From the NCBI GenBank assembly GCA_028718965.1, contig JAQUKS010000003.1, forward strand, positions 1 through 45,927: a stretch of DNA of 45,927 nt, in the 5' to 3' direction. The notes beneath the pieces are model-generated. The model was not told the origin of the DNA, ran no database searches, and worked only from the letters and a program-made list of their open reading frames with translations. Positions 21,824-32,275 of this stretch are shown here, piece by piece; the first letter of the stretch is position 1, and every line of letters begins with the position of its first letter. The DNA is from Minisyncoccota bacterium. Its GTDB lineage: Bacteria; Patescibacteriota; Minisyncoccia; Minisyncoccales; CG1-02-41-26. The position numbers and the translations under genes were made by a program.

Positions 21824-21846
21824 TTGTCGGTATCTGGTATCGACAG
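21824..21846 (+). repeat. REP-A hairpin copy 1 (ttgtcggta-tctgg-tatcgacag)
   Basis: A 9-bp stem (two G-U pairs) with a 5-nt loop, 3 nt after the giant-gene stop and 10 nt before the LamG-A start. It is an identical 23-mer to copy 3 (32451-32473). Confidence 0.85.
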
Positions 21847-21856
21847 CTAAAAACTT

Positions 21857-23344
21857 ATGTCAAGATTTGCCAAACAATCGTTATTTATTTTTTTGAGCTT
21901 TGCTATCTTGGTGACAGGGGCTTTAGTTATCTGGGCCGCCAACGCCGGAGGCAATTTGAAAATCAACCCTTATTTGGGCCATGATTTGGATTTAAATGCC
22001 GCTTATTATGCCCAGGCGGCCAACAACACGGTGCACGATATTACCACCCAGGACATTTCAATATCGGCCTGGGTTAAGATGGATACCGATAGCTCGGGAA
22101 CGATGTATATCCTGTCTAAGTATTTTCCCGGATACGCCTTGTATCTGGTCAATAATGCGGTTGACGCTGTGATTCGTGACGCAGAAGATACTTATCAGAT
22201 ATATAGAAGCAGCGGCGTTGAAATAAGGGATAATAAATGGCATCATCTGGCAGCTGTTTTTGACAGGGATACGGCCGGAAACTGCAGGGTTTTTATTGAC
22301 GGCCAGGAAAGCGGAGAAACGGTGAGAACGGGAACGCTGGCCAACATTGGTTCGATCAGTAACGCCTCCACCTTAGCCATCGGCCGGCGGTCCGGGTCAA
22401 CGAGCAATTACCTTGACGGCCAGGTGCGCGATGTCAAACTGTATTATGCTTCGGCTGACCACTGGACCGACAGCCAGATATTGTATCAATACCAGCACCC
22501 CTTTGATTACACTGGCACGGCCGGAACCACCGGTTCTTTGACCGACTACTGGAGATGCGACGAGGGGAGTGAGACAACTTTGTATGGTAAGGTGAATAAC
22601 CTTACTTTGTCATCGGCATCGGCTTGGTCTATACAACCTAAATTAAAAAACAATCCGAGCTCTACTGCCAAAGTCAAAGTATCCACCGGTCTGGTGGGAT
22701 ACTGGAAACTGGACGATGATTCGACAAGCTCAACCTCAGTCATTGATTACTCGGGCAAAGGCAACACCGGCACGGCCTACTCATCAACAGCCACCACCAC
22801 TTCCGTCCTTTCCACCACCACGGCCCAGATAGGCCGGGCGATGTATTTTGACGGGGTGAATGATCGTGTCTACGGAGGTGCTGGAGACAGTTTTAATTTT
22901 TCTTCTACCAATAAACTTACAGTTTCAGCTTGGGTTAAAATGGATGCGGATACCGGAACCAATCAAACTATATCCGGTAATTGGAGTTATCATCGCTTTC
23001 TTATCAAGCCCACTCTTTTATATTTTGGTTACTGGAATACCGCCGGGATAGAGCAAATAGTTTCCAATACTTATACTTTTGATCTGAATCAGTGGTATTA
23101 TGTGGCGGTGACGGTAAATGATAATGTTGTCACAAAGTATATTAATGGTGTTAGATCTTCTGATTCTCCGGCTATCAAAACCGGAACAATAAAAACTGGA
23201 AATCATGGAGTTTATATTGGCGCTCAAGACGGAAACGCTTATTGGTTTAGCGGCCTCATCGACGACGTCCGCATCTACAACTACGCCAGATCGGCCGAGC
23301 AGATTTTGCAGGATTACCAGCGCGGCCTCAACCATCTACCCTAA
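21857..23344 (+). CDS. anchored LamG-domain protein A (2 LamG/ConA-like domains)
   Basis: N-terminal MSRFAKQSLFIFLSFAILVTGALVIWA (basic head + TM). There are two jelly-roll-type units, ending GQVRDVKLYYASADHWTDSQILYQY and GLIDDVRIYNYARSAEQILQDYQRG. The second is the canonical Laminin_G_3 C-terminal motif. Confidence 0.85.
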   Translation: MSRFAKQSLFIFLSFAILVTGALVIWAANAGGNLKINPYLGHDLDLNAAYYAQAANNTVHDITTQDISISAWVKMDTDSSGTMYILSKYFPGYALYLVNNAVDAVIRDAEDTYQIYRSSGVEIRDNKWHHLAAVFDRDTAGNCRVFIDGQESGETVRTGTLANIGSISNASTLAIGRRSGSTSNYLDGQVRDVKLYYASADHWTDSQILYQYQHPFDYTGTAGTTGSLTDYWRCDEGSETTLYGKVNNLTLSSASAWSIQPKLKNNPSSTAKVKVSTGLVGYWKLDDDSTSSTSVIDYSGKGNTGTAYSSTATTTSVLSTTTAQIGRAMYFDGVNDRVYGGAGDSFNFSSTNKLTVSAWVKMDADTGTNQTISGNWSYHRFLIKPTLLYFGYWNTAGIEQIVSNTYTFDLNQWYYVAVTVNDNVVTKYINGVRSSDSPAIKTGTIKTGNHGVYIGAQDGNAYWFSGLIDDVRIYNYARSAEQILQDYQRGLNHLP

Positions 23345-23348
23345 CTAA

Positions 23349-23376
23349 GCCTTGTGAGGGTCAGACCCTCACAGGC
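23349..23376 (+). terminator. strong hairpin between LamG-A and LamG-B (possible terminator/processing site)
   Basis: gcc-t-tgtgagggt cag accctcaca-ggc: a 9-bp perfect stem plus a 3-bp extension, with loop cag, followed by tgtttatt (a weak T tract). It is unrelated in sequence to REP-A and REP-B. Confidence 0.4.
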
Positions 23377-23388
23377 TGTTTATTAGAC

Positions 23389-30900: not shown

Positions 30901-32234
30901 GCAATACAGGCACGTTGGGTTCTGGCGCGACCGCGGACTCGTATGACCCTGCGTGGAAATCCGCCGCTTATTGCCATTCCGGTGCCTGTTTGTCGTTTGA
31001 CGGCACGGATGATTACGTCGATTTGGGAAACAACACCGGTTCGTTGGATTTTACCGCAAGTCAGCCGTTCTCGATTTCCGTTTGGATAAAACCAACCAGC
31101 TTGGCCACGACTTATCATACGATAATCGGCAAGAACGCAGCCGCGGCTTATCAATATAATCTTTACTTGAACACCAATGGTTCGATAAGTTTTGGTGTCG
31201 GGGGCAGCACTAATGTAAACACTTCGGCCGGGGCTGTGAGCGCGAACAACTGGTATCATATAGAGGCAGTGTCCAACGGAACCACCGCCTGGATTTATCT
31301 CAACGGAGCCATGGCTACCAGCGGCACGCCCACATCAATGACCCACCAGGACGCGAACGTTTATATCGGTCGGTTCAGGGCTAGTGGCTCGATTTATTCT
31401 TTTCAGGGTATCATTGACGACGTCCGTATCTACAACTACGCCCGCACTGTGAGCCAGATTGCCTACGACTATAATCGCGGCGCGCCCGTTGCCTGGTGGC
31501 AGATGAATGACGGCCGGGATACGGCGACCACTTGCGACGCTGTTACTTCAGTTGTCAGGGACTCAATGACCAACTCTTCAACAGGACAAACCGGTAATCC
31601 TGGACGGCTTGTCAATCCCGATGCCTCGCCCGCCACCTCAACAATGTGGAGCGAGGGTAAATACGGCTGCGCCCTGAGCTTTGACGGAACGGATGATTAT
31701 GTGAACTTAGGCGACACGGGGAATCTAAACGGAAGCCCTGGTATTACTATCTCAGCTTGGGTCTATCCGAAATCAACAGCGAATCAAACTATTCTTCAAA
31801 GAGGCAATAGCGCCACGGGTGTAACAAATGCTTATTCGTTGTTTCTCTATGCGACGGATGAAATAAGGTTTCGTGTTTCTACGGTTTCTACTGGTTCTGG
31901 AACAAGCGCAGTACTAGAAACAACTAATTCTCCGATTACCAATTTGAATCAGTGGTATCATGTTATCGGTATTTATAGCGATAGCGATGACACGATGAGA
32001 ATTTATGTTAACGGAGTCCAGCGGTCATCAAGTAATGTATCAGCCTCCGGTCTTTTAGTCGATGGCGCTGACGACAGAAAGATAGGAAATGTCGTAGCAA
32101 GTCCCAACATTTTTTTTAACGGTCTTATTGATGACGTTCGTATCTACAACTACGCCCTCACCGCTCAACAAATTAAAACCTTATATAACCAGGGCTCATC
32201 GGTTCGCTTCGGCCCTTCTTCCGGCCTCCCTTAA
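27951..32234 (+). CDS. anchored LamG-array protein C (6 LamG/ConA-like domains, 1,427 aa)
   Basis: N-terminal MSIAKKQLLFIAVGILIITSGVLITWA. Six units end in: IDDVRIYNYARSASQI, FDDVKVYNKARTAEQI, IDDVRIYNYARTQKQV, IDEVKVYPFVLSPAEV, IDDVRIYNYARTVSQI, IDDVRIYNYALTAQQI. Confidence 0.88.
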   Translation: MSIAKKQLLFIAVGILIITSGVLITWAVNNRGAGPVAWWKLDEGQGQYVYDASGNANTGTLATSTEVTSADPTWRNEPDCKNGKCLYFDGSNDYLLATASQVNTTAGGYNTVSFWMKWNGIFAKAPFFFHSSAYYGFYFLSSTCVGFNTGQSDVYGFDSTSKNLANRWVYVTLVFYNGVYTDNNKIYIDGVSQTLSQCGGTAKSGTAESTVYVGQLGNGVNYYGGSIDDVRIYNYARSASQIKSDYVKSAGGKGATMKVGSSQEEQNASEGLVGYWKMNEASWAGVAGEVVDSSGSSNSGTSTNGANTTSTAKFGRAGYFDGTDDGVDFGTTNTFNFTSQNFTVEMWVNPAAIVSSSMLFCRGSYQADGYYLYQSAGKLYFNTFQSGAKQESAANSALTIGVWTHVAVVRNGSSVVIYLDGKDKTTTRGSHLDPVTSTRNFRVGMHSNGTSYPFSGLFDDVKVYNKARTAEQIMRDYESGPPPVGHWRMDENNGQYAYDTTGNSNNGTLGSGATADSADPAWANGKYGSALNFDGSNDYVNVGQGSALNNFTNMTLSAWIKADSYTTNYRTGIISRRSGLGDDTGLNLTLLGTNGGAQTPGKIAAYRGGGSAVTGTTTISLGKWYYIAATVENNNFKIYVNGVLDASSTLSGWTWESAVDVSIGQIAAISQYYFDGIIDDVRIYNYARTQKQVMEDMNAGHPAVGSPIGSYLGYWPLDEGYGQTVYDKSPSANNGTLASSTEVTSADPTWTTNGKFGKALSFDGTDDYVDMGDSSKLEVGTGDFSISAWIKTSMVTNASIVDKGDTTTATVTRYAMYISGGKIVLGIGDTEWLATAGNKSVNDSTWHFVTVTADRDGLGSMYVDGVLDNSGSIAARSGSLDGTGNFRIGNKSPSGSGNNPFQGFIDEVKVYPFVLSPAEVKEEYNRGAALKLGSAGGPQTATSSDAALLEYCVPGDTSYCVAPVGHWKMDEKSGQYANDVSGSGNTGTLGSGATADSYDPAWKSAAYCHSGACLSFDGTDDYVDLGNNTGSLDFTASQPFSISVWIKPTSLATTYHTIIGKNAAAAYQYNLYLNTNGSISFGVGGSTNVNTSAGAVSANNWYHIEAVSNGTTAWIYLNGAMATSGTPTSMTHQDANVYIGRFRASGSIYSFQGIIDDVRIYNYARTVSQIAYDYNRGAPVAWWQMNDGRDTATTCDAVTSVVRDSMTNSSTGQTGNPGRLVNPDASPATSTMWSEGKYGCALSFDGTDDYVNLGDTGNLNGSPGITISAWVYPKSTANQTILQRGNSATGVTNAYSLFLYATDEIRFRVSTVSTGSGTSAVLETTNSPITNLNQWYHVIGIYSDSDDTMRIYVNGVQRSSSNVSASGLLVDGADDRKIGNVVASPNIFFNGLIDDVRIYNYALTAQQIKTLYNQGSSVRFGPSSGLP

Positions 32235-32235
32235 T

Positions 32236-32248
32236 GCTGTCGGTATCT
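32236..32248 (+). repeat. REP-A half-site (gctgtcggtatct)
   Basis: A 13-nt direct repeat of the 5' arm and loop start of REP-A copy 2 (32252-32264), beginning 2 nt after the LamG-C stop. Confidence 0.8.
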
Positions 32249-32252
32249 AACG

Positions 32253-32275
32253 CTGTCGGTATCTGGTACCGACAG
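32253..32275 (+). repeat. REP-A hairpin copy 2 (ctgtcggta-tctgg-taccgacag)
   Basis: A perfect 9-bp stem with a 5-nt loop, 7 nt upstream of the RAYT-like gene start. Confidence 0.9.

Follow-up and report, generated by a model that had tools for sequence, protein, structure and literature searches.

A hairpin repeat bordering a LamG gene block in a Minisyncoccota genome probably belongs to the neighbouring Y1/HUH transposase-like gene

Whether a pair of short hairpins at the two edges of a gene block marks a mobile cassette is the question raised by a 45,927-nt stretch of DNA from a Minisyncoccota bacterium (assembly GCA_028718965.1, contig JAQUKS010000003.1, positions 1 to 45,927 of the forward strand), which was analysed as a whole and is called the window below. 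Copies of a 23-nt hairpin (hairpin A) lie on both sides of three consecutive genes encoding LamG-domain proteins (LamG-A, LamG-B, and LamG-C), and the right-hand copy stands directly before a gene encoding a transposase-like protein of the Y1/HUH type (Y1 gene 1). An earlier note on this DNA had suggested that the LamG block may be, or may have been, mobilised as a unit by the neighbouring enzyme, or that the hairpins punctuate transcription. The analysis favours another explanation, to which a probability of about 0.55 is given, namely that hairpin A is cognate to the neighbouring Y1 gene, with the repeat at 21824 being a solitary copy of local origin. The bracketing of the LamG genes is best read as incidental and, on present evidence, ordinary. 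Because a solitary intergenic copy upstream of such a unit always brackets whole genes, an exact bracket proves nothing by itself.

The bracketing hairpins were found where the earlier note had put them, at 21824-21846 and 32253-32275, with the loop TCTGG on the plus strand in both. The solitary copy, TTGTCGGTATCTGGTATCGACAG (21824-21846, plus strand), occupies the 36-nt spacer between a giant gene and LamG-A, 3 nt past the stop codon of the giant gene (TAA, 21818-21820) and 10 nt short of the LamG-A ATG (21857), and its stem of 8-9 bp includes one G.T pair. The copy before Y1 gene 1, CTGTCGGTATCTGGTACCGACAG (32253-32275, plus strand), lies 18 nt past the LamG-C stop codon (32232-32234) and 7 nt short of the Y1 ATG (32283), and belongs to the left arm of a perfect 27-nt inverted repeat (32252-32278 and 33031-33057) that frames the open reading frame (ORF) of the Y1 gene (32283-33029, plus strand) exactly. 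The right arm of this repeat holds the inverted copy after the gene (33034-33056, minus strand), which starts 4 nt past the stop codon. The same hairpin thus flanks the Y1 gene at 32253 and 33034, as the earlier note had also observed, and a third copy lies inside the gene (32451-32473, plus strand), in frame, where it encodes LSVSGIDR. The half-site reported at 32236 is likewise present: it is a duplicate of the left arm, GCTGTCGGTATCT (32236-32248, plus strand), and ends 3 nt before the repeat arm 32252-32278. The 21-mer core of the hairpin matched four window sites (21825 plus, 32254 plus, 32452 plus, and 33035 minus) and had no match in 100 dinucleotide-preserving shuffles of the window; the four occurrences of the 23-nt hairpin are not due to chance, since none is expected by chance. 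The two bracketing copies (21824 and 32253) are identical at 21 of 23 positions, but a closer pair exists: the copy at 21824 matches the intragenic copy at 23/23 positions.

The DNA around 11 homologues of Y1 gene 1 was read and contained 12 further Y1 units, which together with the two units of the window make 14; the loci of the relatives are given here by their L numbers. A hairpin just before the start codon and a near-identical, in-frame internal copy were found in 10 of the 12 units of the relatives, and nine of these ten also carried a copy after the stop codon, L010 being without the downstream copy. These ten units are those of L012, L014, L010, L017, L018, L019, L020, L021 (two units), and L023, while L007 has a degenerate upstream copy only and L022, the most divergent member, has flanking palindromes only. 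The gene is flanked by its own palindromic repeats in both window units and in 10 of the 12 units of the relatives, and the internal copy is present in 12 of the 14 units, both window units counted. Internal copies are centred 176-200 nt into the coding sequence, and downstream copies 16-18 nt past the stop codon. The hairpins flanking the gene are direct in L010, L012, L014, L018, and L019, inverted in the unit of window gene 1 and in L020, and mixed in L017.

The sequence of the hairpin varies by genome, and the copies within one unit agree. The hairpin is TGTCGGTATC... in the window, L012, and L014, TGTCGAAGTC... in L010, TGGCGGTATC... in L017, GGTGAAGGC... in L018, GTTGAAACC... in L019, and GTTGAACCC... 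in L020, whereas the two units of L021 differ, one (L021b) sharing GTTGACATC... with L023 and the other (L021a) having TGTCCGAGA... instead. Among 41 aligned hairpins, 94% of the stem cells pair, compared with 72% in column shuffles and 28-45% in slid controls, and compensatory changes, in which both sides have changed, occur at nine of the ten stem pairs; the 41 copies were selected as palindromes, and the pairing statistics have to be read with this caveat. At the protein level, the linker that follows the motif 'FFND..SS.NILR' reads as a translated palindrome in most of 120 homologues (LSVSDTDR, LLKSDFNR, LSESDSDR, LKPGINQ, LSAPGADR, and LTSDVNR). Judged from the aligned proteins, these linkers are independent support for the intragenic hairpin. 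The comparison with relatives strongly supports the link between the hairpin and the neighbouring Y1 gene that the earlier note had drawn.

The second Y1/HUH gene of the window (gene 2, 44358-45080, plus strand, 240 aa) is 33% identical to gene 1 and has a hairpin of its own (hairpin B). One copy, TGAAAGTGGCCGAGCCACTTTCA, stands before the gene (44326-44348, plus strand), one inside it (44892-44914, minus strand), and one after it (45094-45116, plus strand), the last being followed by a right-arm half-site at 45120-45129. The internal copy is located within a 12-aa insertion, RALCKWLGHFQS, that is missing from every other aligned homologue, and its position differs from that in the rest of the family. 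Gene 2 has an intact HFH motif and keeps the tyrosine in its motif Y-V-N-G-N-I. Each of the two Y1 paralogues of the window thus owns a hairpin family, and the same is true of the two units in L021. Half-arm duplicates occur in both families, that of hairpin A being a left arm located 5' of the copy and that of hairpin B a right arm located 3' of the copy, and the half-sites 32236-32248 and 45120-45129 are each able to form an alternative, longer stem. A 225-nt direct repeat with 100% identity (40722-40946 and 44032-44256), with a PPDK gene between its copies, was also observed in this region; a truncated LamG ORF of pilin-like type (44039-44296), which stands immediately before hairpin B and Y1 gene 2, has the second copy as its 5' part. 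The unitig depth of this repeat is about five-fold (39.6 vs 7.4) and the repeat is multi-copy, and the join at this repeat could be either a recent rearrangement or a choice of path in the assembly.

Y1 gene 1 encodes a protein of 248 aa, and a search with this protein returned at least 505 homologues, of which the best 120 are about 50-66% identical to it and 208-288 aa long. The named homologues are annotated as 'transposase' of Parcubacteria, Paceibacterota, Nealsonbacteria, or the Patescibacteria group. The nearest is at most 66% identical (65% by the search's own measure), and hence there was no close relative of the source genome to compare. Most homologues carry the Pfam domain Y1_Tnp (PF01797), for which gene 1 scores 19.8 bits, below the cut-off of 23, and gene 2 scores 32.7 bits. 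The tyrosine motif of the family, YIQVxN, is kept in gene 1 as YIQVKN. An AlphaFold (AF2) model of the gene 1 protein (pLDDT 72, pTM 0.74) was compared with known structures using Foldseek, and the best match was 4er8, the Escherichia coli REP-associated tyrosine transposase (RAYT) bound to a hairpin of the repetitive extragenic palindromic (REP) type (probability 0.98, E 0.014). This match is weak but specific, with a TM-score of 0.51 on the target, and the next matches were the TnpA proteins of IS608 and ISDra2. The linker encoded by the hairpin is a low-confidence stretch of the model, located between strand beta1 and the HUH motif and its strand.

Extra copies of the hairpins, beyond those of the Y1 units, were found at 0-4 per 20 kb in the relatives, where they sit 0-19 nt past the stop codons of unrelated genes or in frame within ORFs. 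Copies of the first kind include an inverted doublet 11 nt past a sigma-70 gene and a single copy 12 nt past a DUF5667 gene (both L017), a copy 19 nt past a Big_2 gene (L018), a doublet directly after a Carb_kinase gene (L020), and a copy 6 nt past a LamG gene (L010), and those of the second kind lie in an LTD/beta-helix protein gene (L017) and in HTH_DeoR and sigma-70 genes (L021). Genome, metagenome, and viral contig collections, none of which contained the source genome, were scanned for the exact 21-mer of the window. Among the genome contigs, only one other metagenome-assembled genome (MAG), also from Patescibacteria, contained it, in frame in a PrmC-like methyltransferase gene (L002) and at one intergenic site, both copies being on contigs that show no Y1 gene. 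Among the metagenome contigs, it was found in one Patescibacteria-like contig (L005, Ga0209609_10004450), in which an inverted doublet of the exact hairpin (1341-1398) is in frame within a thioredoxin-reductase (TrxB) gene. The TrxB orthologue of the window (38524-39447, 65% identical to that of L005) is without exactly those 18-21 residues, and thus the doublet in L005 is an insertion. The TrxB orthologue of L020 has a different insert, located at the same loop of the protein. The viral contig collection gave no match to the exact 21-mer. Two further metagenome contigs (L004 1123-1155 and L006 1165-1197) had the 21-mer in a longer palindrome beside (GA)n and (TA)n microsatellites; these contigs are probably eukaryotic and were set aside as unrelated.

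The Y1 units also differ in their chromosomal placement. In L012 (8801-13270), the unit is located between the PGK gene and a RecJ-like gene, and these two genes abut in the window (15-2106), which gives a comparison of an occupied and an empty site between distant relatives. The interval between sigma-70 and DUF5667 genes is occupied by a complete Y1 unit in L021 (9201-11607), whereas in the syntenic region of L017 (17140-18576) it has the inverted hairpin doublet only; this difference looks like the loss of a gene that stood between the hairpins, or else like a site preferred for landing. These observations establish the repeat and its architecture, show that it co-varies with the gene across genomes, and place it at unrelated genes as well. 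According to published work, most REPs are less than 20 bp from the 3' ends of ORFs and intragenic REPs are tolerated (PMC3733652), and REPs are known within the tnpA-REP genes of subclass 2.4 (PMC6006769); the sites of the extra copies match this behaviour.

The best-known system of this kind is the REPtron, with E. coli YafM/RayT (PDB 4er8) as reference (PMC3333891, PMC3479197, PMC2817692), which is defined by one REP family per RAYT gene, divergent paralogues each with its own hairpin, and co-evolution of the two (PMC6006769, PMC3333891). In both systems, a gene of the Y1/HUH fold is flanked by short palindromic hairpins that belong to it, each gene has a single hairpin family, the paralogues within one genome are divergent, and extra copies are near the 3' ends of ORFs; the reference protein is also the best structural match. 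The REP/RAYT framing of the earlier note therefore fits in both fold and arrangement. On the other hand, the protein here is about 245 aa long with an extra C-terminal helical part, the hairpin occupies a fixed intragenic site, the copy number seems low and clustered near the gene, and the hosts are Patescibacteria, which are missing from the published classifications. Judged by length and by the NHFH and FQ signatures, the family appears closest to TIRYT, which is subclass 2.1 in the classification of Quentin et al. 2018 (PMC6006769). TIRYT proteins have a similar length (median 238 aa), NH[YF]H and FQ signatures, and a C-terminal extension, and their genes are framed by terminal inverted repeats, represented in the window by the perfect 27-nt pair; in contrast, TIRYT repeats are described as not REP-like and mostly absent elsewhere, whereas the arms here are hairpins and extra copies exist. 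Subclass 2.4 of the TnpA-Y1 proteins (PMC6006769) shares the in-frame hairpins in the transposase gene, located in a peripheral variable region, and its HuH signature, NH[IFV]H, is like that found here. However, the hairpin here lies between beta1 and HuH, at the same place in nearly all members, and it is without the GT[AG]G feet that the REPs of subclass 2.4 carry.

IS200/IS605 elements (IS608 and ISDra2 TnpA) resemble the Y1 units in their Y1 HUH fold, in the subterminal hairpins at both ends of a unit of about 0.8 kb, and in the occurrence of the unit at different chromosomal places between genomes. The two hairpins are on one strand, as in these elements, in most relatives but not in all. 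Unlike these elements, the Y1 units have no tnpB gene and no multiple near-identical copies (the two window units are 33% identical with different hairpins, and the situation is the same in L021), the IS200 motifs DH[VI]H and Y---Q differ from those of the family, and the hairpins of the gene 1 unit are inverted, not direct. Rickettsia palindromic elements (PMC3733652) are similar in that in-frame palindromes are found in housekeeping genes that are left unbroken (TrxB in L005; sigma-70 and HTH_DeoR in L021), but these elements are longer and have no known associated transposase, whereas a cognate Y1 gene is evident here. No publication was found on REP/RAYT-type systems in Patescibacteria. 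What is new is the arrangement of three hairpins throughout the family, one of them intragenic and co-evolving, while the REPtron kind of system is itself known.

Under the favoured explanation, hairpin A and Y1 gene 1 would form a REPtron-like unit of a Patescibacteria-wide family, with hairpins before the start codon, at a fixed in-frame site about 180 nt into the coding sequence, and 4-6 nt past the stop codon. By analogy with E. coli TnpA-REP and IS200/IS605 TnpA, the Y1 enzyme would bind the hairpin folded in single-stranded DNA, cut at its foot, and rejoin the ends. Such cutting and rejoining may spawn or homogenise copies, mostly near the enzyme's own gene. The copy at 21824 would have landed in, or been copied into, a post-stop spacer 10.4 kb upstream, the usual site of an extra copy, and together with the Y1-proximal copy it would bracket whatever lies between them without defining a mobile cassette. 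As a side effect, transcribed hairpins beside stop and start codons may influence mRNA stability or translation.

Several results weigh against this explanation. The present activity of the gene 1 enzyme is doubtful because its HUH motif is replaced by QYH (residues 99-101, window 32577-32585), preceded by N (N-Q-Y-H); among 113 readable sequences, 109 had HFH and three had HYH, and gene 1 was the only one with QYH. A Logan contig of the source run encodes the identical gene 1 protein, QYH included. RAYT proteins, in contrast, have an intact HuH (as gene 2 does with HFH), and the tyrosine motif YIQVxN differs from the class-2 motif Y---NP in spacing and in the proline. A profile of the family matched no solved Y1 enzyme among the PDB sequences, and the NCBIfam models of RAYT and IS200 scored far under their cut-offs. 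The guide tetranucleotide GT[AG]G, which RAYT REPs have at the 5' foot of the hairpin, was also missing, as neither GTAG nor GTGG occurred in the flanks of 44 copies, in which the palindrome extends at its foot simply as GTCTG...CAGAC. Hairpins A and B do not appear to be classical high-copy REP families: 51-nt stretches around them, searched against 79% of the source-run contigs, matched copies of the Y1 units only, although the reporting of matches as short as 23-27 nt by this search is unproven. The earlier note had set hundreds of unrelated sites as the mark of a generic REP; the family instead seems to have few copies, which cluster around its gene. The only known additional copy of hairpin A lies at the far edge of the gene block beside the enzyme gene, a position that random placement would seldom give. 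Furthermore, a LamG gene or relic is directly upstream of six of the 14 Y1 units (both window units, L010, L014, L020, and L023). This adjacency is unexplained by the proposed model and amounts to a hint, LamG genes being common in these genomes and some of the loci syntenic.

The adjacency to LamG genes counts in favour of another explanation, considered unlikely, in which the LamG block was mobilised or acquired through the hairpins. The hairpins at 21824 and 32253 could be the left and right ends of an element as in IS200/IS605, with the Y1 enzyme having moved the 10.4-kb segment as a unit, or the block could have entered by recombination at a pre-existing hairpin that was thereby duplicated. 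Both hairpins have the same orientation and stand exactly at gene borders, the extra copy is conspicuously placed in that no further copy of hairpin A was found in the sampled source contigs, and direct flanking hairpins in most relatives resemble the ends of IS200/IS605. However, the bracketing copies differ at 2 of 23 positions and do not form reciprocal hybrids, and it is the intragenic copy that the one at 21824 equals. The block includes a tRNA gene on the minus strand that has a promoter-like site to itself, the GC content shows no break at 21.8 kb (Y1 gene 1 itself is an AT-rich outlier, with a GC content of 0.40), and the degenerate HUH of the gene 1 enzyme is unique among the readable homologues. 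The length of 10.4 kb also counts against such a transfer, as single-strand transposition of IS200/IS605 elements drops steeply with element length. The extra copies in relatives border or interrupt genes of unrelated kinds (sigma-70, DUF5667, Big_2, Carb_kinase/TrxB, PrmC-like methyltransferase, and HTH_DeoR). Junctions joining 21824 to 32275, the trace of excision that the earlier note had pointed to, were searched for in Logan contigs of the source run, a landfill metagenome, at about 8x. No joint or loose end was found at 21824 or 32275, which is a weak test and no refutation, since assembled contigs drop rare variants and 21470-21980 was uncovered. Many joints that were matched at first in these contigs proved to be cross-matches between LamG repeats of other organisms and not hairpin junctions. 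Mobilisation of the block as a unit is thus not supported: the contigs of about 8x gave no hairpin joints, extra copies occur at unrelated genes, and the enzyme has the QYH motif.

The locus of L010 bears on the same question from both sides. A foreign AlbA_2/HATPase gene is located there between two modules, each a hairpin-spacer-hairpin of about 120 nt, that are 97% identical, which would suit a transfer of genes between hairpins. However, on its right side the AlbA insertion ends within a LamG relic instead of at a hairpin. This relic, 72 nt of a LamG 3' end, precedes the second module, which implies that the modules originally followed two LamG genes, one of which the AlbA gene then replaced. 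Identity is no more than 72% between the adjoining LamG ends vs 97% for the modules, and this contrast points to copying or homogenisation of the hairpin itself and not of cassettes, as far as can be judged from the sequences. In the same locus, a 20-31-nt unit, AGAACCTTGACGGAGAATAA, occurs once before the Y1 unit and twice after it; the stretches of L010 that hold these features are 8040-8260, 9755-10003, and 10915-10965.

An equally improbable explanation is that the hairpins are mainly RNA elements that would act by 3'-end protection, termination or attenuation, or occlusion of ribosome sites, and would thereby determine how strongly the giant gene, the LamG genes, and the Y1 gene are expressed relative to one another. 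The genes of the window are all on the plus strand, apart from the tRNA gene at 27750-27822 on the minus strand, and so are three of the four copies of hairpin A; two copies contain G.T pairs, which allow pairing on the plus strand or its RNA only. Over 41 copies, however, G.T and A.C mismatches numbered 19 vs 13, with no strand bias, a result that is uninformative, and copies occur in both orientations and within ORFs. The predicted RNA stems of the hairpins, at about -9 to -19 kcal/mol, are moderately stable, the foot of the hairpin is 7-13 nt from an ATG at several loci, and published REPs are often transcribed and near the 3' ends of ORFs (PMC3733652). Intrinsic termination was ruled out, as no copy is followed by a T-tract and none was listed by a terminator scan of the window. 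The transcriptional punctuation suggested by the earlier note is thus not borne out in its classical terminator form, with copies lying inside ORFs and directly before start codons as well. An RNA-level role would leave the co-variation of the hairpin with one particular Y1 gene unexplained, but an effect on mRNA decay or ribosome access could accompany the hairpins as a side effect, as has been reported for REPs elsewhere.

It is less probable still that the hairpins are passive repeats, produced by local duplication or gene conversion in a fast-rearranging array of surface-protein genes and serving at most as short homologies for RecA-type or slippage rearrangements, with the Y1 protein uninvolved. 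The LamG region is full of internal repeats, the identical 225-nt repeat with its five-fold unitig depth is near the second Y1 unit, and the L010 modules are flanked by LamG 3' ends. Passive duplication does not account for three copies per unit that are identical, genome-specific, and at fixed positions relative to the gene, and the difference between modules and LamG ends in L010 argues for active copying or homogenisation of the hairpin. An integron-like arrangement with one hairpin per cassette was rejected, as there are two hairpins for three large genes plus a tRNA gene and none follows LamG-A or LamG-B. A broader conjecture, for which the odds appear very low, is that Y1/HUH units act on neighbouring arrays of surface-protein genes and capture, excise, or reshuffle LamG gene blocks through single-stranded intermediates with hairpins at the LamG borders; if true, this would be an HUH-driven counterpart of the cassette systems that vary host-attachment proteins in Patescibacteria, and the intragenic hairpin, with its fixed position, would act as a control or donor site for the enzyme itself.

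A low-copy REP-like family alone yields paired repeats at the edges of a block beside a transposase-like gene, and present evidence does not justify annotating the LamG genes as a mobile cassette. The family is a large, Patescibacteria-restricted group of Y1/HUH genes, with a cognate hairpin at three fixed places that changes at all of them together between genomes, and offers many natural enzyme-hairpin pairs for studying the co-evolution of an enzyme and its DNA target. It also accounts for small in-frame palindromic inserts in housekeeping genes of streamlined genomes, and draws attention to short repeats at which metagenome assemblies may break or be joined wrongly.

The block itself was described in the earlier note as exactly three LamG genes. 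Its borders do lie at gene ends, but it also holds a minus-strand tRNA gene (27750-27822). LamG-A (21857-23344, plus strand, 495 aa) has two Laminin_G_3 domains, and LamG-B (23389-27615, plus strand, 1408 aa) and LamG-C (27951-32234, plus strand, 1427 aa) have six each; the three are paralogues, all with N-terminal membrane anchors. The terminator scan found an unrelated terminator-like hairpin between LamG-A and LamG-B (23351-23375, plus strand). LamG-B contains a 234-nt direct repeat (24189-24422 and 25578-25811, 95% identical), which by its sequence indicates a recent internal domain duplication. Upstream of the block, the giant ORF (10313-21820, plus strand) encodes 3835 aa with repeats of the type GNVGIGT...P..KL and no Pfam domain. 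A protein distantly similar to its product precedes a hairpin copy in L003; orthology was rejected, the similarity being about 31% at the repeat level only, and therefore a conserved position of the hairpin after the giant gene cannot be claimed.

The tRNA gene of the block (73 nt, anticodon UAG) is antisense between LamG-B and LamG-C and is preceded by a perfect TTGACA-16-TATAAT promoter-like site (27957-27930). An overlapping ORF of 110 aa (27612-27944) is probably spurious. The tRNA(UAG), of the Leu codon family, has a short variable arm and an acceptor stem with G3.U70 and A73. G3.U70 plus A73 are the classical identity marks of alanine. Its Rfam score is 46 bits, compared with 64-66 bits for the other three tRNAs of the window, whose genes are at 7189, 7317, and 10091. 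The window also contains an RNase P RNA (bacterial class A, 121 bits) at 2601-2986, between an RNase H-like gene and MurJ. In L007 (4706-9996), a set of genes resembling a diversity-generating retroelement (an FGE-sulfatase-domain target, bAvd, and RVT_1) is located directly upstream of the Y1 gene, and many 23S_rRNA_IVP four-helix genes are interspersed in this locus.

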